Origin: a virus
Lineage: Duplodnaviria; Heunggongvirae; Uroviricota; Caudoviricetes
Strand: one strand, 5' to 3'
Length of the DNA: 42,407 nt
Virus record (IMG/VR): IMGVR_UViG_2565956608_000007
Span: 1 to 42,407 of that record
The notes beneath the pieces are model-generated. The model did not search any database. It saw only the letters and a list, made by a program, of their open reading frames with translations, and was not told the origin of the DNA. Of the stretch, positions 4,625 to 42,407 are shown piece after piece. How positions within the stretch are numbered: the first letter of the stretch is position 1; the number at the start of each line of letters is the position of its first letter. Made by a program: the position numbers and the translations under genes.

Positions 4625-5017
4625 TCATACGAAGCGCCTCACAGCCAAAGAAGCGACCACCCGACCGTGAATTTTGATTTCTTTCTGTTCATCAGCATTA
4701 AGGGTGAAAGTTTCGTAATGATGGTTATCAGAGATGATTTTTAATGAGCCATCAGCTAATGGCTCAATTCTCTTAATGAAAAGGCATGGGCGACCAAAAG
4801 CATCCATTGTGTAAACATAAATTCCAGAGGTAAGCGCACTTCCACCGCAATCAACGAAAGCCACAACCTCACATGGTTCGATGGTCGGCTGCATTGAATC
4901 ACCTTCCATCCGGCAGCTTTGAACGCGGTTGCCAAAGTCATTAATGTTGTCAGATCCGAACAGCATCTGAGGCGTTTTAATTGGCTTATTAATTGCGACG
5001 GAATTTTGCATTCTCAT
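4625..5017 (-). CDS. stand-alone S24 (LexA/UmuD-like) peptidase-domain protein
   Basis: 130-aa ORF with GDSMQP serine motif and downstream FIKRI lysine motif typical of S24 peptidases; no HTH domain; GAGG ribosome-binding site. Confidence 0.7.
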   Translation of the reverse strand: MRMQNSVAINKPIKTPQMLFGSDNINDFGNRVQSCRMEGDSMQPTIEPCEVVAFVDCGGSALTSGIYVYTMDAFGRPCLFIKRIEPLADGSLKIISDNHHYETFTLNADEQKEIKIHGRVVASLAVRRFV

Positions 5018-5077: not shown

Positions 5078-5509
5078 TTAAATCTTGTCGGCTTGCTTGC
5101 AGATGGTTTCTTGCAAGTCGTCTAATTTTTCATAAACGATAGTTAGCGTACCGATAGCCGACAATTCCGGAGGCATACAATCCATAGCGTTGGATAAAGC
5201 CATTCTGCAATTGCCAATATCCGCAGACCATGAATTAAGTTGATTGGAAGTTATAATGCTTGTTGGCTCTGTAAAATCACCACACTGCTCGTTTCCTGAA
5301 ATGAGCCACAGAACATCAGAATGAAGAATGTTAGCCAATTGGATTAACTGGTCAGCAAACGGAACAGTTTTTTCCGTTTCCCAGTTGTTAATGGTTTCGG
5401 TTGTTAAACCAAGATGATCAGCCAAAAAATCCTGAGACAGTCGAAGCGAAGATCTTTGATTTAATATTCTTTTGCCGATGGTTTTGGCTACGGTGATTTG
5501 AGTATTCAT
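5078..5509 (-). CDS. HTH (XRE-family) DNA-binding protein, first gene of leftward early operon
   Basis: 143-aa ORF with N-terminal helix-turn-helix (LRLSQDFLADHLGLTTETINNWE); preceded by operator-like palindromes. Confidence 0.7.
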   Translation of the reverse strand: MNTQITVAKTIGKRILNQRSSLRLSQDFLADHLGLTTETINNWETEKTVPFADQLIQLANILHSDVLWLISGNEQCGDFTEPTSIITSNQLNSWSADIGNCRMALSNAMDCMPPELSAIGTLTIVYEKLDDLQETICKQADKI

Positions 5510-5710: not shown

Positions 5711-6409
5711 TTAGAGCCTATTGTAATTGATTGATTCATGCATTATGGCTTTACCCATCACGTAAAGGTCATCTTGGTTTTCTTCCGTGATATACCATTT
5801 CTCATATGCCGGATTATCCGATAAGACTGCCAGCCTGTTTCCCTGCATCTGGAGACGTTTTAGGTGAAATGTTTTACCAAAAACAAAAACATACACACCA
5901 TCCGTTAGAAAGTGTCGGACGGAAATGTCTACGAAGACACGATCACCGGAATTGAACGTGCTGGCCATGCTGTCGCCATTGACGGTCATTACTTTTACGA
6001 CATCTTCACTACGATTCCCGAAGAGGGATTTTGCATGTTGAGTCGTGAACTCAATAGCGTGTAAAACCTCCACATATTCTGAAAGCATGAACGTGCCAGG
6101 CCCTGCACTCACTGAAAGGTCAAGAACCTCGACCCTGAATATGCCAGCGTTATCCTTTACCTCCCTTTCGGGCATGGTCTCTATCACATAGCCCTGTCTA
6201 TGAGGCACATGATTTTTTCCAGTTGATAGCCATTCAGGGCTCACACCCAGCGCATTAGCAATCTCAACCAACTTACGTGTTGTGTTGGTTTTGCCTGCAA
6301 CAAGACGCCAGATAGCTGGTTGCGAAACCCCAACTTTCATCGCTAATTCTGCCTGTGTAAGGCCTGCGTCAACCATCGCTTTTTGAAGACGATCTGAGAA
6401 TGTGTTCAT
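5711..6409 (-). CDS. cI: CI-like prophage repressor (HTH + S24 autopeptidase domain)
   Basis: N-terminal HTH (LTQAELAMKVGVSQPAIWRL) and C-terminal S24 motifs (GDSMAS ... FHLKRL); divergent from Cro-like gene. Confidence 0.85.
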   Translation of the reverse strand: MNTFSDRLQKAMVDAGLTQAELAMKVGVSQPAIWRLVAGKTNTTRKLVEIANALGVSPEWLSTGKNHVPHRQGYVIETMPEREVKDNAGIFRVEVLDLSVSAGPGTFMLSEYVEVLHAIEFTTQHAKSLFGNRSEDVVKVMTVNGDSMASTFNSGDRVFVDISVRHFLTDGVYVFVFGKTFHLKRLQMQGNRLAVLSDNPAYEKWYITEENQDDLYVMGKAIMHESINYNRL

Positions 6410-6518
6410 ACCAATAAGCCTATACAAAAAGTTATTAAGTGGCAAATACGATAAGTTATTGCATAAAGTTATTCAAGGCTATACTCTTTCCCTATGTTCA
6501 ATAACTTTTGGTATTTTT
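6410..6518. promoter_or_regulatory. cI-cro intergenic operator/promoter region (OR-like)
   Basis: Four copies of AGTTATT/AATAACT (6430-6436, 6454-6460, 6467-6473, inverted at 6500-6506) between divergent repressor genes. Confidence 0.55.
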
Positions 6519-6747: not shown

Positions 6748-6957
6748 ATGTCGCACTCAATCACTACCGAAAACCAAATTAAGCCATTGGATATCGATTA
6801 TCGCGATCCGCGCGGTGTGATTGTGCATGTCACCGGCTGGAATCGGGATAAGCAGCAGGTGTATTTCACCAGGCAGAATTATCCGCATGAATGCATGCAG
6901 CCTGTCTGGAAGTTCCAACAATATTTTACAAAGGTCTCGGAGGCGCAAAATGCGTGA
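6748..6957 (+). CDS. hypothetical protein
   Basis: 69-aa ORF with GAGG ribosome-binding site directly after the cro stop. Confidence 0.5.
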   Translation: MSHSITTENQIKPLDIDYRDPRGVIVHVTGWNRDKQQVYFTRQNYPHECMQPVWKFQQYFTKVSEAQNA

Positions 6958-7315
6958 TTACGGAAAGGTGTCGTCTGAGTTTTGGTTAGACCAGAACGGC
7001 AACAAATGGAAAGTGCCCACGATCAAAGGTCGCCTGAAAATGCGCGTACCCTGCCATCGCGCACTACGCGAATTTGTTCTTTGGCGCGACGGTTTCAAAT
7101 GCCGTCATTGTGGTAGTCAAGACCGCATTAAATTGGTCGCAGATCACATTGTATCGCGACGTAACGGTGGGGCTCACCACCCAGACAACATGCAGTGTTT
7201 GTGTGATTCCTGCAATGCGCGCAAGGCATCCCTGGTTGATGCCAAATTCCAGCCAAGGCCTGATGTAAGTGAGGTTATTTGTTCTGATGGAGGGGTGATT
7301 GATGGCACGCATTAG
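6950..7315 (+). CDS. HNH endonuclease
   Basis: Cys/His motif CRHCG ... DHIVSRRNGGAHHPDNMQCLCDSCNARK; GGAGG ribosome-binding site. Confidence 0.75.
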   Translation: MRDYGKVSSEFWLDQNGNKWKVPTIKGRLKMRVPCHRALREFVLWRDGFKCRHCGSQDRIKLVADHIVSRRNGGAHHPDNMQCLCDSCNARKASLVDAKFQPRPDVSEVICSDGGVIDGTH

Positions 7316-10289: not shown

Positions 10290-10601
10290 ATGGATCGCCT
10301 AATTAGAGAAATGTCGTACCTCTTTACCAAGCAGCGTTTTTTGGAGCTTCAGGAAGCGGCCAAAGACATCGCAATCGGTCATAGTGACTTTCCTGAGTGT
10401 TTCGGTCTTATTGCTGACGCCATCGCTGAATTTGTTGAAGACACTCCTGATGATGAGTGGCGAGAGTATGAAAAAATCCTCATGCACTACGTTGCTATGC
10501 GTACTCTGACGCTGTGGGGTAACGGGGATAAAGTTACTGATGTCCAGTGGGCACACCCTGGCTGGTTTGGCACTGCTGAAAAGGGAGAAACCATTCAATG
10601 A
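10290..10601 (+). CDS. hypothetical protein
   Basis: 103-aa ORF, stop overlaps the next start (ATGA). Confidence 0.5.
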   Translation: MDRLIREMSYLFTKQRFLELQEAAKDIAIGHSDFPECFGLIADAIAEFVEDTPDDEWREYEKILMHYVAMRTLTLWGNGDKVTDVQWAHPGWFGTAEKGETIQ

Positions 10602-11380
10602 AACTGGAAGCAGCACTCAAACATTTTAGTCCTCAGGGAATGCATATCAGCGACGATGTAAAGGGAACCTCTCCGGATCGTCTCACCGGCACTGATGTTA
10701 TGGCAGCGATTGGTACCACCAGCAGCCGTGCGCGGTTCGGCCTGGCGGCGTTCTTCGGTAAAGCGGGAATCAGCAAAACGGATGAACAGCTCGCAGTTCA
10801 GGCGCTGGCGCGATATGCGATGGATGTCGCACCGAAGAATGTTCGCAAAGCAGCTGGTGGCCAGTTCGGATGGTGTATGCAGATGTTGGCACAATTTGCC
10901 TTTGCTGATTACTCACGTTCAGCGGCTACCAGCGTGACGTGTCACAGTTGCAGTGGTACCGGGTTTATCTCCAGGAATGAGGATGTGGTTAAACATCCTG
11001 GTATTTTCGACGCCGACGGTGCTGAAGTAGTTGCCCCGAAGATTAAAAATGAGCTGGTGAATAGGGTTTGCGGAACATGCGGAGGAAAGAAAGTGATCCT
11101 TGCCCGGTGCAGGTGTGGCGGTAAAGGCGAAGTGTTGGACCGCAAAGCGACCAAAGACCGCGGCGCACCGGTTTTCAAAACGTGTGAACGTTGCTCTGGT
11201 AATGGCTTCTCTGCTATCTCCTCGGCTACAGTACACCGCGCCATTCTGAAGCGTCTCCCTGACCTCCATCAATCCTCATGGTCACGCAACTGGAAACCCT
11301 TCTATGAAATGCTGGTGGATACTCTGCGCCAGGGGGAGCGTCACGCAGCAGTGGAATTTGAGAAGGCGACAACTTATTAA
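10598..11380 (+). CDS. zinc-finger protein, putative late-gene antiterminator (Q-like)
   Basis: Four CxxCxGxG motifs; located between replication and lysis modules and followed by a promoter plus terminator pair. Confidence 0.4.
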   Translation: MKLEAALKHFSPQGMHISDDVKGTSPDRLTGTDVMAAIGTTSSRARFGLAAFFGKAGISKTDEQLAVQALARYAMDVAPKNVRKAAGGQFGWCMQMLAQFAFADYSRSAATSVTCHSCSGTGFISRNEDVVKHPGIFDADGAEVVAPKIKNELVNRVCGTCGGKKVILARCRCGGKGEVLDRKATKDRGAPVFKTCERCSGNGFSAISSATVHRAILKRLPDLHQSSWSRNWKPFYEMLVDTLRQGERHAAVEFEKATTY

Positions 11381-11674: not shown

Positions 11675-12160
11675 ATGAGCATCACGCAAGAACGGCTGAA
11701 AGAGGTTCTGAAGTACGACCCTTTGACTGGTTTATTTGTTTGGATCAAGCGAACAAACTCTCGGTCTACGCCAGGCAATATAGCCGGGAACGCAGATACG
11801 TACGGCTATATCCAGATAATGATCGATAAGAAATTAATCTTCGCTCATCGGTTGGCTTTTTTATACATGGATGGTGCGCTGCCGCCAGCTGATAAGTGTG
11901 TCGATCATATCAATGGCAATCCCAAAGATAACCGATGGGACAACTTACGTATCGTTACCCAGTTTGTTAATCAGCAGAACAGGCATAAGGCCAGAAAAGG
12001 TGCGAAATCTGGGCTAATTGGAGCAAACTGGTGCAAGGATCGTGGCCTGTGGCGTTCTGCGATTAGCGTCAACGGGAAACGCAAAGATCTCGGTAGTTTC
12101 CAAACTGCGGAGTTGGCTCACGAGGCTTACATGAAAGCTAAAGCTGAAATGTGTCGTTAA
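11675..12160 (+). CDS. HNH homing-type endonuclease
   Basis: DHINGNPKDNRWDNLR HNH motif. Confidence 0.7.
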   Translation: MSITQERLKEVLKYDPLTGLFVWIKRTNSRSTPGNIAGNADTYGYIQIMIDKKLIFAHRLAFLYMDGALPPADKCVDHINGNPKDNRWDNLRIVTQFVNQQNRHKARKGAKSGLIGANWCKDRGLWRSAISVNGKRKDLGSFQTAELAHEAYMKAKAEMCR

Positions 12161-12465: not shown

Positions 12466-12682
12466 GTTTCCCCTCCTTCTGAGAGAACTCACGGCAATGA
12501 AGTATTGACCGGCGGAATGATTTCGGCGTAATTTGTTTGTGTGGTGAATCCTTTCTAAGCGAAAGGGCGTTCCAGTCAACTGCTATCTGCAGGTATGCGC
12601 GCGGCTTTGCTGACTGGGGTAGAGTCACCGGGAGGCACCCGGCACCATGACAACAACAATACAAGTTTCAAATTCCTTGAGA

Positions 12683-12710
12683 GCCTGCCATAAAACGCAG
12701 GCCTTTTTTT
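12683..12710 (+). terminator. Rho-independent terminator
   Basis: GCCTGC-loop-GCAGGC followed by TTTTTTT. Confidence 0.55.
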
Positions 12711-12860
12711 ATGGTTTTGCAAACTGCTGCTACGCTTTGAGTTGTGGGAAGTAACTGAATGCCCGGTGGTTCTCCTGGACCGATAGTGAATCAGCCGATA
12801 CAGCTTCACCTCTGAGCATAAGTCTTACTCACACCTACCTTACAAATAGTCAACTCATTA

Positions 12861-37382: not shown

Positions 37383-38059
37383 GCAAGTACACGGACTTAA
37401 TCACCAACTATCACGCCACGAAGCCGAAATTTTTTGATCACGTCGACCTGAGCACGCGGCCACTGATTGATATCACTACCGCAACCCGGGGGCTGGTAAG
37501 CGCTTTCGATATTGATACCGCTGTCGGCGTCCAGCTCGATACGCTCGGCCTCTGGATTGGTCGCAGTCGCATTGTCAGCCAGCCGATAAGCGGCGTGTAT
37601 TTCAGTTGGGATACTGACGGGCTCGGATATGACCAGGGCGTATGGCAAGGCCCATATGATCCAGATGCAGGCTATACCACGCTGAGCGATACAACCTATC
37701 GCATCGTTCTTAAGGCAAAAATCGCCATCAACAACTGGGACGGCCGCAATGATTCGCTGCCTCCCATCCTTGACGCTGCAACTGCAGGCTCTGGCCTGAA
37801 GATGCAGATCGTCGACAACCAGGACATGACGATCTCGGTCTGGGTATTTCCCGAGACAGATATATCAAATGTGTCTCTCGAACTAATCGCCGCTATCAAA
37901 CAGGGCTATCTCACCGTTAAAGCAGCTGGCGTATGGGCCGGTGACGTGGAAACGCCTTCGGTAGAAACACCGTCAGAAGGCTCTAAATTCTTTGGCTTCG
38001 ACATGGACAACGAATATATCGCCGGATTTGATGATGGCGCATGGGGGAAATTACTGTAA
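37379..38059 (+). CDS. baseplate / tail protein adjacent to fiber
   Basis: 226-aa ORF overlapping the J-like stop. Confidence 0.5.
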   Translation: MSKYTDLITNYHATKPKFFDHVDLSTRPLIDITTATRGLVSAFDIDTAVGVQLDTLGLWIGRSRIVSQPISGVYFSWDTDGLGYDQGVWQGPYDPDAGYTTLSDTTYRIVLKAKIAINNWDGRNDSLPPILDAATAGSGLKMQIVDNQDMTISVWVFPETDISNVSLELIAAIKQGYLTVKAAGVWAGDVETPSVETPSEGSKFFGFDMDNEYIAGFDDGAWGKLL

Positions 38060-39177
38060 TGGCAATAAATAACTTTAAACCATTCGCGACAGCAGCGAAT
38101 GCTAACGTGATGTCCCAGGCTGACTGGGAAGGGCTTCCGGCTCTGCTCTCTGGTTTTACTTCAGGCAAGGCGGCCAGCGCAGAGGTAAATAAGGCAATCC
38201 GGCAGGCCAGCTTTATCGCGGCAGCGCTGGCGCAGTACACCGCCAACAAAAGTGGGCTGGATGTGCTTGATGATGCTGATTTGAACGGGTTCATTACCAA
38301 AATGACCACTGCATTTGGTAAGGATTTCCAGGCGCTGGACGCCACGCTAACAGCACTTGCCGGCCTCGCTACTGGAGCAAACAAGCTTCCGTATTTCACC
38401 GGGACAGATACCGCGGCACAAACTGACCTTACGCAGATCGGTCGGGACGTTATCGGTCAGACAACCGTGGCGAACCTTCTCACATACCTCGGTTTGGGAG
38501 ATGGCACAGGAAGGCTTATTAATGTCCAGACTTTTACGGCTAGCGGAACATATACCCCAACCGCCGGAACAAAATTTGTTATCGCTGAGGTTCTTGGAGG
38601 TGGCGGCGGTGGCGGCAGTAACGCGGCTACGCCAAGTTCAGGGGCGGCGGCAGGTGCTGGCGGAGCTTCAGGTGCCTATGCAGTTTGCAAGCATACACCG
38701 ACAGGGCCGGTAAGTGTTGTTATTGGTGCTGGTGGGGCTGGCGGAGTATCTACGGCAGCTGGTGCTGATGGTAGCACAGGCGGGACATCATCTTACGGCG
38801 CAGTATCAGCACCTGGTGGGCGTGGAGGCCCCAGAGGCGTGGCGTTTAATAACTTCCCTACGGGTGGAAACGTTGCGACTGGTTCATCTGGTGTTACTGG
38901 TTCAGTTATTGTTGGTACACCTGGTACCGGCGGATCATATGGCATTCTTTATTCAGATTCGAATGCTACAGGCGGCGGTGGAGCAAACAGTATTTATGGC
39001 GCAGGCGGAATTGCCATAACAATCAACAGCGGTGGATCAGGTACTTCACAAGGGGCTGATGCCAATGGTTATGGTTCTGGTGGCGGTGGTGCTGTTTCTG
39101 TGCATACGGCGACAGCATCCAGTTCACGTGGAGGCAATGGCACGCCAGGGATTGTAATTATCTGGGAGTACGCATAA
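38059..39177 (+). CDS. tail fiber protein with glycine-rich C-terminal region
   Basis: Conserved fiber-like N-terminus (MAINNFKPFATAANANVMSQADWEGL); C-terminal half dominated by GG/GxG repeats; TAATG overlap with upstream gene. Confidence 0.75.
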   Translation: MAINNFKPFATAANANVMSQADWEGLPALLSGFTSGKAASAEVNKAIRQASFIAAALAQYTANKSGLDVLDDADLNGFITKMTTAFGKDFQALDATLTALAGLATGANKLPYFTGTDTAAQTDLTQIGRDVIGQTTVANLLTYLGLGDGTGRLINVQTFTASGTYTPTAGTKFVIAEVLGGGGGGGSNAATPSSGAAAGAGGASGAYAVCKHTPTGPVSVVIGAGGAGGVSTAAGADGSTGGTSSYGAVSAPGGRGGPRGVAFNNFPTGGNVATGSSGVTGSVIVGTPGTGGSYGILYSDSNATGGGGANSIYGAGGIAITINSGGSGTSQGADANGYGSGGGGAVSVHTATASSSRGGNGTPGIVIIWEYA

Positions 39178-39584
39178 TGAAAGAATTTGCAGTAGTTAAA
39201 GATGGTATGGTGGTTAATATTATTTTGTGGGGTGGCGAAGATAACGGCTTTGCGAAAGATATTGATGGTGAACTTATCGCAATTCCAGAAGAGATTCAGG
39301 TCGGTATTGGCTGGAGTTATGAAGGTGAGAAATTTGCATCCCCTCCTGAACCGGATAAAACTAAAGAGCAGCTAATTCAGGAAGCAAACCTTGAAAAAGA
39401 GGGGCGCATAAATTCAGCCAATGATTACATGAACAGCAAGCAGTGGCCTGGCAAAGCTGCGATTGGTCGTCTAAAGGGTGACGAATTGGCCCAGTACAAC
39501 CTTTGGCTTGATTACCTGGATGCACTGGAAGCGGTTAATACATCTACTGCACCAGATATCACCTGGCCTCAGCAACCAGAATAA
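39177..39584 (+). CDS. tail fiber assembly protein (Tfa-like chaperone)
   Basis: C-terminus AAIGRLKGDELAQYNLWLDYLDALEAV typical of Tfa chaperones. Confidence 0.7.
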   Translation: MKEFAVVKDGMVVNIILWGGEDNGFAKDIDGELIAIPEEIQVGIGWSYEGEKFASPPEPDKTKEQLIQEANLEKEGRINSANDYMNSKQWPGKAAIGRLKGDELAQYNLWLDYLDALEAVNTSTAPDITWPQQPE

Positions 39585-39590
39585 AAACAT

Positions 39591-39615
39591 GGGGCGCAAG
39601 CGCCCCTATTTTTCT
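39591..39615. terminator. bidirectional terminator between convergent tfa and acyltransferase genes
   Basis: GGGGCGC/GCGCCCC inverted repeat flanked by A-run on one side and T-run on the other. Confidence 0.6.
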
Positions 39616-39624
39616 CGTTGGTTG

Positions 39625-40668
39625 TCATATTAAAGCTTTTCGTAAAAGCGTCTTCCCAATTAAAACACCTTTTCGCTCTACAGTTTTATGCGCAAAATAA
39701 CAAACTATAAATAACAATGTTAATATTTGAATGTTGCTGTTGATATATGGGATTTGTAATTTTGAAACCACTAGTGACAAAGTATACCAAATCCAGTTAT
39801 GGAACAAGTATACAGCATAAGTCATTTCAGACAGTAAATTGCATGCTTTGGATTCAATGAATTTATCTCTAAACAACCACGAAACAAGGAAAATAATAAC
39901 TCCTGTAAATGCGTAGTTGTACTGGCCCCAGAATGGATTTATTTTCTCAATGAGAGATAAATGCAGATAGAACATAATTACGATGGATGCTAAAGCAATA
40001 ACCCGATTAACTAACTTATGCTCTACAAGATACACTACTACACCGATAAACAAAAATGGCGTATACAATGTAAAGTAAGCATTATGAAAATCATTAGCCA
40101 CAGGGAAAGGGTTAATGCTGGATATAAAAAACGATACAACAAGAAGGAGAACAGTCAAAACGTTTCCTTTGTTTATTATACCAGCTTTTTTAACTAATCC
40201 CATAAACACGTAGAACATCATTTCTATTCTTAGTGTCCATTCTACGCCAGCTAATGAAAGTGGAGTGTTAAAGAAATCACCTATGAGCAAAAGTCTTGGG
40301 ATTAGTATAGTTAGAGGTGGAACACCAGCACCGTTATAATACTGAACTAACATTTCTGCAATAACTGCAAAAATGTATAAAGGATATATTCTAAAAATCC
40401 TTTTTAAATAAAATTCAAAAGTTGCTTCTTTTTGTAAAACGTGGGTTATGATATATCCTGAAACAAGAAAGAAGATTACAACCCCCATAGCCCCACCGAA
40501 ACTGGCATCGGCAAGTAGACCGTAAAATGATCTAAGTGTTACGTGGTTACTTGGATCGCTCGCCCACGAAGCTAAATCTTTGTTGAACTTGTGGCCTAAC
40601 ACCACAAGAGAGAATGCAAAGATACGCATGTAATCTAAAAAAAGAATTCTACGATTGTTCATTTTCAT
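39625..40668 (-). CDS. acyltransferase family 3 membrane protein (OafA/Oac-like O-antigen acetyltransferase)
   Basis: About 347-aa polytopic membrane protein with acyltransferase-3-type N-terminus (RILFLDYMRIFAFSLVVLGH); markedly AT-rich; located between tail genes and attR. Confidence 0.75.
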   Translation of the reverse strand: MKMNNRRILFLDYMRIFAFSLVVLGHKFNKDLASWASDPSNHVTLRSFYGLLADASFGGAMGVVIFFLVSGYIITHVLQKEATFEFYLKRIFRIYPLYIFAVIAEMLVQYYNGAGVPPLTILIPRLLLIGDFFNTPLSLAGVEWTLRIEMMFYVFMGLVKKAGIINKGNVLTVLLLVVSFFISSINPFPVANDFHNAYFTLYTPFLFIGVVVYLVEHKLVNRVIALASIVIMFYLHLSLIEKINPFWGQYNYAFTGVIIFLVSWLFRDKFIESKACNLLSEMTYAVYLFHNWIWYTLSLVVSKLQIPYINSNIQILTLLFIVCYFAHKTVERKGVLIGKTLLRKALI

Positions 40669-40809
40669 CAAAATCTTATTGTTGATGAGGCTATTTTATA
40701 GCATGAACAGCGAAATTCATAACAGGTTGGTGGTTGGGGTGGTGAAAAATCTCATCATGGAAGAAAAATCTGGCTGTCAGCGTTTATTAATGCTGGCAGC
40801 CAGCACATT

Positions 40810-41076
40810 TTACAGCCCAACCTGGCGAACTGTCGGGAACTCAGAAACCAGCCACATATCGGCCTCTTCAAACATATCCTCCAGCATGCGGTTGAGTTTT
40901 TCCCGATCGTTTTTGCTGGCATCGCTATTCAAGCCGTTCGCCTGCATCGGCTTCACCCTCACTTCGGCATCAGGGAAGATCTGGTGCACTCGCTTCGTCA
41001 GCTCAGCCAGGATAATCTCTCTGGCCCCTTCAAGTCCCTCTACATTTCGCTTGTCATAAACCAGTTCAACGAACAT
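40810..41076 (-). CDS. dinI: DinI-family protein
   Basis: 88-aa ORF resembling DinI (acidic C-terminus EEADMWLVSE); GGAGG ribosome-binding site; two LexA boxes upstream. Confidence 0.7.
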   Translation of the reverse strand: MFVELVYDKRNVEGLEGAREIILAELTKRVHQIFPDAEVRVKPMQANGLNSDASKNDREKLNRMLEDMFEEADMWLVSEFPTVRQVGL

Positions 41077-41095
41077 AAAAGCCTCCGGAAAACCA

Positions 41096-41135
41096 CTGTG
41101 GTTGTATACAGTATTTTTACTGTAAAAATAAACAG
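41096..41135. promoter_or_regulatory. two tandem LexA (SOS) boxes
   Basis: aCTGTggttgtatACAGta at 41096-41111 and taCTGTaaaaataaACAGtg at 41120-41135, both fitting CTGT-N8-ACAG; 20-60 bp upstream of the dinI-like start. Confidence 0.7.
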
Positions 41136-41195
41136 TGTCAAGGCATGGGCTGCGCGAGGAAGGGAAGTATTTTTGTTACCCTTAGTTACAAATAG

Positions 41196-41230
41196 AAAAA
41201 CCCCAGACCGTGAGATCTGGGGTTCTTTTA
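41196..41230. terminator. bidirectional Rho-independent terminator downstream of ssrA
   Basis: CCCCAGA-loop-TCTGGGG hairpin with A-run 5' and T-rich tract 3'. Confidence 0.55.
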
Positions 41231-41238
41231 AAGTGCAC

Positions 41239-41255
41239 GTGCATTTTACGTGCAT
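41239..41255. repeat. 17-bp direct repeat GTGCATTTTACGTGCAT (right arm)
   Basis: Identical to 1743-1759. Confidence 0.45.
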
Positions 41256-41347
41256 TTTTTTGTCTTTTCTCGGTCTGCGCTCTGTCTGGTCAGAGTCCGT
41301 AAGTAGCTGTTTTTATTGCCGCTGTCCGGTTGTAGTCCTATCAAAAG

Positions 41348-41710
41348 TGGTGGAGCTGGCGGGAGTTGAACCCGCGTCCGAAATTCCTACATCCTCGGTA
41401 CTACATGCTTAGTCAGTCTTTACATTCGCTTGCCAGCTGCGGACGGACACGCCACTAACAAACTAGCCTGATTAAGTTTTAACGCTTCAACCCCAGGCAG
41501 GGCTTCCACGCGATCTCTTTTGGGTTTGACCTCTCTTGATCCCCGTCCTAAGAGCGGAGGCTAGGGAGAGAGGGCTCTAAGCAGGTTATTAAGCTGCTAA
41601 AGCGTAGTTTTCGTCGTTTGCGACTATTTTTTGCGGCTTTTTACGAGGCCAACCGCCCCTCGGCATGCACCTTGGGTTTCGCAAATCCCGTCGAATCCAG
41701 AATCAGCCCC
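41348..41710 (-). ncRNA. ssrA: tmRNA (transfer-messenger RNA, SsrA)
   Basis: Minus-strand sequence begins GGGGCTGATTCTGGATTCGACGGG and ends ...GGTTCAACTCCCGCCAGCTCCACCA; 363 nt; directly downstream of smpB. Confidence 0.95.
41355..41384. repeat. attR core inside ssrA (GCTGGCGGGAGTTGAACCCGCGTCCGAAAT)
   Basis: 29/30 identical to 1663-1692. Confidence 0.65.
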
Positions 41711-41924: not shown

Positions 41925-42407
41925 TTAACGGTGGGCATTTTTCATGATACGCGCTTTATCCACCTGCCATTCGCGTTCTTTGATATCTGAACGTTTATCG
42001 TGCTGTTTCTTACCTTTGGCGACGCCGATTTTCACTTTGCACCAGGCATTTTTCCAGTACAGGGAGAGCGCCACTACGGTATAGCCTTCTCGATTGACGC
42101 GACCGTACAATGAGTCCAGTTCGCGCTGGTTGAGAAGTAACTTGCGGGTACGGGTAGGATCGCACACCACATGCGTGGAGGCCACAGCCATTGGCGTGAT
42201 GTTAGCGCCAAACAGAAATGCCTCTCCGTCGCGCAGAAGGACATAGCTGTCGCTGATATTGGCTTTTCCTGCGCGCAGGGATTTAACCTCCCAGCCTTGC
42301 AGGGCAAGTCCCGCTTCGAACTCTTCTTCGATAAAGTATTCGTGACGGGCGCGCTTGTTAAGCGCGATGGTCGCTGAACCAGGTTTATGTGCTTTTTTCT
42401 TCGTCAT
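41925..42407 (-). CDS. smpB: SsrA-binding protein SmpB, complete
   Basis: 160-aa translation [58 protein letters not shown]... recognised as enterobacterial SmpB. Confidence 0.95.

Follow-up and report, generated by a model that had tools for sequence, protein, structure and literature searches.

The DinI protein acts on RecA filaments, which are stabilized at stoichiometric levels of DinI, and at high levels it inhibits UmuD cleavage and recombination (review: PMC6590174). Among the dinI genes carried by phages, those of the Gifsy prophages are subject to LexA control. A tagged Gifsy-2 DinI accumulates after mitomycin C, and replacement of the segment containing the LexA box leads to the loss of damage-dependent activation (PMC3121763, Lemire et al. 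2011). Treatment with nalidixic acid raises dinI transcripts 23-, 14- and 4.6-fold in Gifsy-1, -2 and -3, respectively, the box being located 19 bp from the ATG (PMC8072944, Merida-Floriano et al. 2021). A LexA-controlled dinI located by the tail genes has been also described in the Serratia phage OS31, together with a statement of the general pattern (PMC7556043). Here we analyze a gene of this kind in a stretch of 42,407 bp (IMG/VR record IMGVR_UViG_2565956608_000007, hereafter the window), which is a segment of an enterobacterial chromosome containing a lambdoid prophage of ~40 kb between csiD and ssrA/smpB. It is very probable that the last gene of this prophage, which is integrated in ssrA, constitutes a self-contained, LexA-repressed unit with a dinI of the phage type.

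The dinI-family gene (40810-41076; 88 amino acids, aa) lies on the minus strand, a detail left unstated in the initial annotation, with its ATG at 41076, the TAA stop codon at 40812-40810 and a Shine-Dalgarno sequence, GGAGG (41082-41086), 5 nucleotides (nt) ahead of the ATG, which was read from the sequence and is conserved in related loci. That annotation had placed two near-consensus LexA boxes, 8 bp apart, 20-60 bp upstream of the gene, and both are indeed found there, as 16-mers at 41096-41111 (CTGTGGTTGTATACAG on the plus strand) and 41120-41135 (CTGTAAAAATAAACAG), with a distance of 24 bp from centre to centre; they occupy positions 20-35 and 44-59 nt before the ATG. They are embedded in a promoter, PdinI, read like the gene from the minus strand, with a -35 hexamer TTGACA (41136-41141) and a -10 hexamer AAAAAT (41113-41118) that together match at 10 of 12 positions and are separated by 17 nt. 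The distal box (CTGTTTATTTTTACAG on the gene strand; 20-mer 41118-41137, four mismatches to the 20-nt consensus) fills the whole spacer between the hexamers, and the proximal box (CTGTATACAACCACAG; 20-mer 41094-41113, five mismatches) lies over the predicted transcription start, with the -10 hexamer between both boxes. This is the arrangement of a LexA-regulon promoter, i.e. two exact operators placed on a sigma-70 promoter, one in the spacer and one at the predicted +1; if LexA bound at both, its two dimers would lie over the spacer and the start site, reaching between the hexamers and past them. Exact CTGT-N8-ACAG sites occur only twice in the window, both of them upstream of dinI, compared with 0.46 expected, and two such sites anywhere were obtained in 5 of 100 shuffles, a figure that does not take their adjacency into account. 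According to a weight matrix built from E. coli LexA sites, the scores of which are approximate and suitable for ranking but not as a heterology index, the distal (~23.8-23.9 bits) and the proximal box (~18.4-18.5 bits) are the two best 20-mers, followed by a third one with 11.6 bits.

In the alignment of PdinI with the corresponding promoters of Gifsy-2 and the coliphage Fraca, GCCTTGACA, AAAAAT and ACTGTAT...ACAGT are in register, and both hexamers are invariant. The window and Gifsy-2 share the -35 region (GCCTTGACA), the AAAAAT hexamer and a proximal box located ~19-20 nt from the ATG. The sole systematic difference is in the spacer, which reads GACAAAACCGCCAAAGC in Gifsy-2 and is replaced by the second LexA box here, the distal box being absent from both Gifsy-2 and Fraca; by the same approximate matrix the single box of Gifsy-2 scores 27.2 bits, as compared with 23.8 and 18.4 bits for the distal and proximal boxes of the window. 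Because this promoter is homologous to the Gifsy-2 dinI promoter, which was tested experimentally (PMC3121763, PMC8072944), dinI of the window would be expected to be controlled by LexA as well.

The module composed of the upstream terminator (described below), the promoter, both boxes and the gene is near-identical in E. coli prophages located at ssrA, in one located at torT and in phage LMessi, and it was also found in genomes representing species of Citrobacter, Enterobacter, Atlantibacter and Pseudocitrobacter. Among 79 relatives, i.e. loci from other enterobacterial species with enough upstream sequence, 69 contain at least one LexA-like box (CTG[TG]-N8-[AC]CAG) within 130 nt upstream of the gene, with a background of 0.013 per 130 nt calculated from their own flanks. 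Two boxes in the 24-nt register were found in 10 of the 79, and in four of these ten the boxes differ in sequence and are located at -56/-32 or -57/-33; therefore, the 24-nt geometry recurs independently of the sequence. The distal box is identical in 13 of 15 related loci and degenerate in two relatives, L008 (CTTT...) and L026. In the proximal box the central N8 varies across the two-box loci (ATACAACC, ATGCAATC, ATACAAAC, ATATAACC), while CTGT and ACAG are invariant. A megablast search with the 81-bp promoter detected it in 12 of 5426 complete E. coli genomes, and as such a search undercounts diverged copies, this number speaks only for the rarity of the exact variant, which seems to be uncommon in E. 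coli. Most carriers of the two-operator form of the Gifsy-type promoter are prophages that integrate in ssrA, in several genera of enterobacteria. Both the homology to the Gifsy-2 promoter and the conservation of the boxes across genera support the initial view that the prophage ends with a gene of the DinI family controlled by tandem LexA operators.

On its upstream side, PdinI is preceded by an intrinsic terminator on the minus strand (AAGAACCCCAGATC-TCAC-GGTCTGGGGTTTTT, 41196-41227; 14-bp stem, 4-nt loop, T-rich tail, -20.6 kcal/mol), which is conserved in 15 loci. It is predicted to end the phage-arm-supplied ssrA transcript and thereby to insulate PdinI from ssrA read-through. The LexA box of Gifsy dinI is likewise preceded by a terminator (Lemire et al., PMC3121763), so this element is common to the Gifsy prophages and the prophage of the window. 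The attR core (41355-41384), a direct repeat of attL (1663-1692) with 29 of 30 identical positions and one mismatch, is located within the 3' end of ssrA, the gene for transfer-messenger RNA (tmRNA; 41348-41710), which makes dinI the last gene of the prophage; in the genome record of LMessi the same dinI adjoins the integrase gene, as expected beside attP.

The encoded protein matches the DinI family of Pfam (PF06183) over profile positions 2-63 of 63 (E 2.8e-23; 82.4 bits, with a cut-off of 24.2), PHROG 189, 'RecA filament binding protein DinI' (E 8e-22), and the solved structure of E. coli DinI, 1GHH (E 2.5e-7). It aligns with residues 16-81 of the latter, retaining the acidic C-terminal helix, present as ...REKLNRMLEDMFEEADMWLVSE with 8 acidic residues within KNDREKLNRMLEDMFEEADMWLVSE, and the WLVSE ending, which conforms to the W-x-VSE pattern; a helix of this kind has been proposed to imitate DNA on RecA. 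It scores 41.1 bits with the NCBIfam equivalog for chromosomal DinI (NF007893), below the cut-off of 111, and can be assigned to the paralogous phage or MsgA-type branch rather than regarded as the chromosomal orthologue. Its identity is 92-99% among E. coli prophages and coliphages, and with Gifsy-2 DinI it amounts to 89% over the 63 residues present in that record; RefSeq labels the E. coli copies 'DinI family protein'. Two ORFs (open reading frames) that overlap dinI on the plus strand (40655-41059 and 40984-41412) were considered as genes and rejected, given the full DinI match in the minus-strand frame, although similar ORFs are annotated in phages LMessi and phi80. In the LMessi record (L001, PP925823.1; 2979-3569) a plus-strand 'hypothetical protein' is annotated opposite a 92%-identical minus-strand DinI located behind both LexA boxes, which is probably a wrong-strand gene call, and the phi80 record likewise annotates an ORF 'antisense to' its dinL. 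DinI proteins with 88-94% identity are also encoded on contigs labelled Chitinophaga, Geobacteraceae, Kocuria and Vagococcus (L017, L019, L026 and L045), of which L017 (2350 bp) and L019 are metagenome-assembled genomes and L026 comprises only 506 bp; contamination or mis-binning is the likely cause.

Immediately downstream, 7 nt past the stop codon of dinI, begins a terminator-like hairpin on the same strand (40803-40770, with a tail A-TTTTT-C-TT at 40769-40761). It has 11 base pairs in a 7+4 bp stem with one C/A mismatch, a 10-nt loop and a folding energy of -17.2 kcal/mol, and is directly followed by AUUUUUCUU. This hairpin separates dinI from the gene of a putative O-acetyltransferase (39625-40671, minus strand), which belongs to the Acyl_transf_3 family (PF01757, E 1.5e-25; PHROG 3333 'O-acetyltransferase', E 1.9e-80) and thus lies downstream on the same strand, just as the initial annotation had it. 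The same source described the hairpin as weak, an assessment that we cannot share: with its U-tract it is comparable to the other terminators of the window (-20.6 and -15.0/-12.4 kcal/mol), and in 500 dinucleotide shuffles of the region between the genes an equal hairpin with a T-tract was never reached (best -11.9). The organization is that of an intrinsic terminator, i.e. a GC-rich hairpin directly followed by a U-tract, with a loop longer than typical. The equivalent hairpin of E. coli DX6 has a perfect stem and -22.3 kcal/mol. In relatives, a GC-rich hairpin comes straight after the stop codon of dinI irrespective of whether the next gene encodes an acyltransferase or, in convergent orientation, a recombinase or a tail-fibre or assembly protein.

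A generic scan recovered PdinI and the upstream terminator but missed the hairpin after dinI, owing to a loop limit of 8 nt, as well as the extended -10 element of the acyltransferase discussed below, owing to its poor -35; the hairpin was read by eye and then tested by shuffling, and the extended -10 was read by eye and then compared with locus L006. The minus-strand fold of the 91-nt stretch 40740-40830 (z -0.82) is uninformative for a local hairpin, and the local test was used instead. An approximate score of the d'Aubenton-Carafa type, calculated by hand, is slightly negative because of the long loop; it was not relied on, and following it the terminator is termed moderate rather than strong. 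Just past the terminator there is a C-rich, G-poor stretch on the transcript strand (CACCACCCCAACCACCAACC, 40760-40735, minus strand), the composition of which is typical of Rho-loading sites; speculatively, it could provide a further, Rho-dependent layer of insulation where read-through RNA is not translated. In E. coli M8 (L008), Pseudocitrobacter cyperus (L028) and Enterobacter asburiae (L074) a 79-aa dinI is followed, without a strong hairpin, by same-strand cargo ORFs, which in E. coli M8 encode a Panacea-domain protein and its partner; unlike the window, these loci could be true LexA-controlled operons.

From these elements, the homology to the Gifsy promoter and the established biology of the SOS response, the following mode of action can be proposed. 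In an undamaged lysogen, two LexA dimers would occlude RNA polymerase at PdinI. Following DNA damage, RecA filaments would trigger self-cleavage of LexA, the promoter would open and DinI would accumulate, to bind RecA filaments via its acidic C-terminal helix and tune their stability and coprotease activity. The second operator, combined with a proximal box weaker than that of Gifsy, most likely makes repression tighter in the off state and the switch steeper. Transcription would probably end, for the most part, at the hairpin past dinI, with the O-acetyltransferase gene downstream driven by a putative promoter of its own, and induction of the prophage would proceed via a cleavable CI repressor without need of dinI.

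Several observations weigh against this picture. LexA regulation at this locus is predicted from homology and motif conservation, and the proximal box, with its five mismatches, is only a moderate one. We infer RecA binding for a protein that stays far below the equivalog cut-off (41 vs 111 bits). Termination is probably made less efficient, maybe well below 100%, by the 10-nt loop and the C/A mismatch, and in L005 and L025, where a different acyltransferase follows on the same strand, no U-tract adjoins the hairpin on the side of dinI. Finally, non-polar deletions of dinI in Gifsy-1 and Gifsy-3 did not significantly change induction (PMC3121763, where the data were not shown).

Among other explanations, the one that survives best, although we regard it as unlikely, is that of an SOS operon, in which transcription from PdinI passes the hairpin and DNA damage raises the level of the O-acetyltransferase, altering the cell surface at induction. 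Both genes share a strand, with 138 nt between them, some read-through past the hairpin is likely given its 10-nt loop and mismatch, and there are precedents for LexA-controlled operons headed by dinI, namely dinI-antirepressor-irsA in Gifsy (PMC3121763) and p60-p59 in the Serratia phage OS31 (PMC7556043). Moreover, the arrangement is found more than once, as acyltransferases of two unrelated kinds lie after dinI on its strand (the window and L002 on the one hand, L005 and L025 on the other). Against this stand a hairpin and U-tract as strong as accepted terminators nearby and never matched by shuffled sequences, and a foreign base composition, with 33% GC for the acyltransferase (32-36%) vs 48-50% for dinI.

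The acyltransferase also seems to be equipped for expression away from dinI. A putative extended -10 element, TGcTATAAA (40695-40703, minus strand), which lacks a good -35, is located 26 nt upstream of its first ATG. The gene is present in 6 of 5426 complete E. coli genomes, and in five of them it lies behind intS at tRNA-Arg, with no dinI. In one such locus (L006) an identical TGCTATAAAAT is kept, and the homology of the intS-linked copies to the window stops at 40703, exactly at TGCTATAAAAT; the TGcTATAAAAT motif and the start region are therefore retained without dinI, and this motif suggests a promoter belonging to the acyltransferase itself. Between the tail-fibre genes and attP there is a slot for cargo in general, where some relatives have a recombinase, others a Panacea-domain gene and others no gene at all, and because of this the adjacency of dinI and the acyltransferase is best taken as positional. 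Co-transcription of the two genes as a designed feature, suggested in the initial annotation, thus finds no support in the hairpin with its U-tract, the foreign GC content or the motif kept without dinI, and an operon of dinI and the acyltransferase is improbable.

The O-acetyltransferase would rather be independently acquired, low-GC cargo of the lysogenic-conversion type, a neighbour of the dinI unit and not a part of it. Prophage O-antigen acetyltransferases of the Sf6 Oac type are encoded next to attP, and the gene of the window resembles them as a low-GC Acyl_transf_3 membrane protein gene located between tail genes and the attachment site, although no close relative of it was found in the phage collection, where the best match has 25% identity. 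In E. coli DX6 (NZ_CP126345.1, ~1201667 and ~1238947) the acyltransferase is present twice, each time together with its upstream region, and the dinI promoter is matched at two places; the distance of ~37 kb between the acyltransferase copies suggests tandem related prophages at ssrA.

A variant of the operon idea, which we consider less likely still, is that the terminator is leaky and that deep SOS induction, with both operators vacated, pulses transcription of the O-acetyltransferase and couples modification of surface polysaccharides to prophage induction. If it were true, such coupling could, for instance, prevent the adsorption of released virions to debris or to sibling cells, and the recurrence of the arrangement with two unrelated acyltransferases would reflect selection and not a shared cargo slot.

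It is very improbable that induction is triggered by the DinI-like protein, or by a small ORF hidden next to it, serving as a LexA-controlled antirepressor similar to Tum of phage 186 or GfoA/GftA of Gifsy. LexA-controlled modules with DinI sequence do carry antirepressors in 186, PSP3, Fels-2 and Gifsy phages (PMC3121763), and the PHROG 189 profile has 151 positions, which means that Tum-sized proteins are among its members. However, the match of the window's protein to that profile is confined to its DinI half (positions 71-150), with no N-terminal antirepressor part, and the 138-nt gap past dinI is filled by the terminator and contains no ORF of at least 30 aa wholly within it on the minus strand; the minus-strand ORF 40755-40922 (55 aa), which reaches into the gap, starts inside dinI in another frame. 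Furthermore, the CI-type repressor of the prophage (5711-6445) comprises helix-turn-helix (HTH) and S24 domains, an Ala-Gly site (SVSAGPG), the serine of a GDSM motif and a downstream lysine. Because of this S24 domain, cleavage site and Ser/Lys pair it should be cleaved directly on RecA filaments, and with a cleavable CI an antirepressor would be unneeded. Two ORFs adjoin the intact CI on the minus strand, 5078-5509 (143 aa), with a CI-type HTH domain only, and 4625-5017 (130 aa), with Peptidase_S24 only, with stop codons between them; they could be what is left of a second repressor that was split or has decayed, or else an HTH gene with a HumD/UmuD-like gene next to it.

The least probable reading, that the boxes are chance motifs or a decayed remnant that LexA does not bind, leaving the gene constitutive or silent, can point to the degenerate distal boxes of L008 and L026 as proof that the second box is losable, but it has to contend with the two best LexA-like sites of 42 kb standing side by side on a promoter, with the conservation of that promoter across Escherichia, Citrobacter, Enterobacter, Atlantibacter, Pseudocitrobacter and phage LMessi, with its homology to an experimentally validated one and with an intact ORF that is 92-99% conserved in relatives.

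The remaining features of the window agree with a lambdoid prophage. It begins with csiD (1-978), followed by the integrase (1815-2987), CI and antiterminator Q (10598-11380), and towards the other end there are a glycine-rich tail fibre (38041-39177), the like of which follows baseplate J/gp47 genes in related E. coli prophages, a tail-fibre assembly gene (39177-39584) and a terminator acting in both directions (39591-39606) between the latter and the acyltransferase; ssrA is then followed by smpB (41925-42407). The smpB-ssrA flank is 95.2% identical to that of E. coli, and the host is therefore likely an Escherichia outside E. coli proper. A 17-bp repeat (GTGCATTTTACGTGCAT) flanks the att core on both sides, at 1743-1759 by int and at 41239-41255 by the terminator upstream of dinI, and probably represents arm-type sites of the integrase. 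An action of the LexA boxes on integration at attP was considered and rejected, as they are located outside the arm repeat, at a distance of more than 100 bp. The displaced native 3' end of ssrA with its terminator is still found at attL (~1560-1692). An Rfam scan of the dinI region matched tmRNA as the sole known RNA family; elsewhere, a match to the small RNA family STnc100 was found downstream of the Q gene (12512-12714, plus strand; 55.7 bits, with a gathering score of 47), and the early/regulatory region contains two ORFs of HNH endonucleases (6821-7315 and 11675-12160, both on the plus strand).

As for its meaning, the LexA-repressed dinI unit has little import beyond annotation, being one more, cleanly delimited phage dinI cassette under predicted SOS control, but it documents a two-operator form of the Gifsy-type promoter. 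A tightly repressed, insulated and monocistronic dinI beside a prophage with a cleavable CI would be a convenient system for studying a possible effect of dinI on RecA-dependent cleavage of the repressor. In practical terms, SOS regulation of the neighbouring O-acetyltransferase should not be assumed.

Compared with the systems described to date, the locus shares its promoter with Gifsy but differs from it in context. Gifsy dinI heads an operon with an antirepressor and irsA, and the repressor remains uncleaved; here dinI is followed by a predicted terminator 7 nt past its stop codon and a 138-nt gap with no ORF of its own, and CI appears to be of the cleavable type. Gifsy dinI is located downstream of replication genes (PMC3121763), whereas dinI of the window adjoins attR. 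Coliphage 186 likewise has a LexA-controlled gene at the end of its genome, in the Tum/p95 SOS operon, with a product that contains DinI-like sequence (PMC3121763); however, Tum (146 aa) possesses an N-terminal antirepressor half, and the 88-aa protein of the window corresponds only to the DinI half of the shared PHROG profile, so that a Tum-type antirepressor was not found here. Chromosomal E. coli DinI (1GHH, 7YWA) belongs to the same Pfam family, aligns over residues 17-79 and, like the protein of the window, ends in ...W(F/L)VSE and has an acidic helix at its C-terminus; it is regulated by LexA, as dinI of the window is predicted to be from its sequence, but the two proteins share only ~40% identity, and the gene of the window is borne by a prophage and has two operators.

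In layout, the closest counterparts are dinL of phi80, 91% identical, on the opposite strand to the adjacent tail-fibre gene and with a 'predicted LexA binding site' upstream (record NC_021190), and gp22 of phiKO2, which shares 59% identity and for which the record (AY374448) lists a promoter, a lexA binding site and, past the gene, a 'putative bidirectional terminator'. All three have a LexA site, dinI and a terminator in this order, beside tail genes. On the other hand, dinL and gp22 have a single box each and encode proteins of 79-80 aa without the 9-residue C-terminal tail, and the operator of phiKO2 is shared with a divergent umuD-like gene, which distinguishes it from the prophage of the window. 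A LexA-controlled dinI beside phage tail genes is therefore already known from Gifsy, phiKO2, phi80 and OS31; what appears to be slightly different here is the second operator in the promoter spacer and the clean monocistronic insulation of the gene between two predicted terminators.

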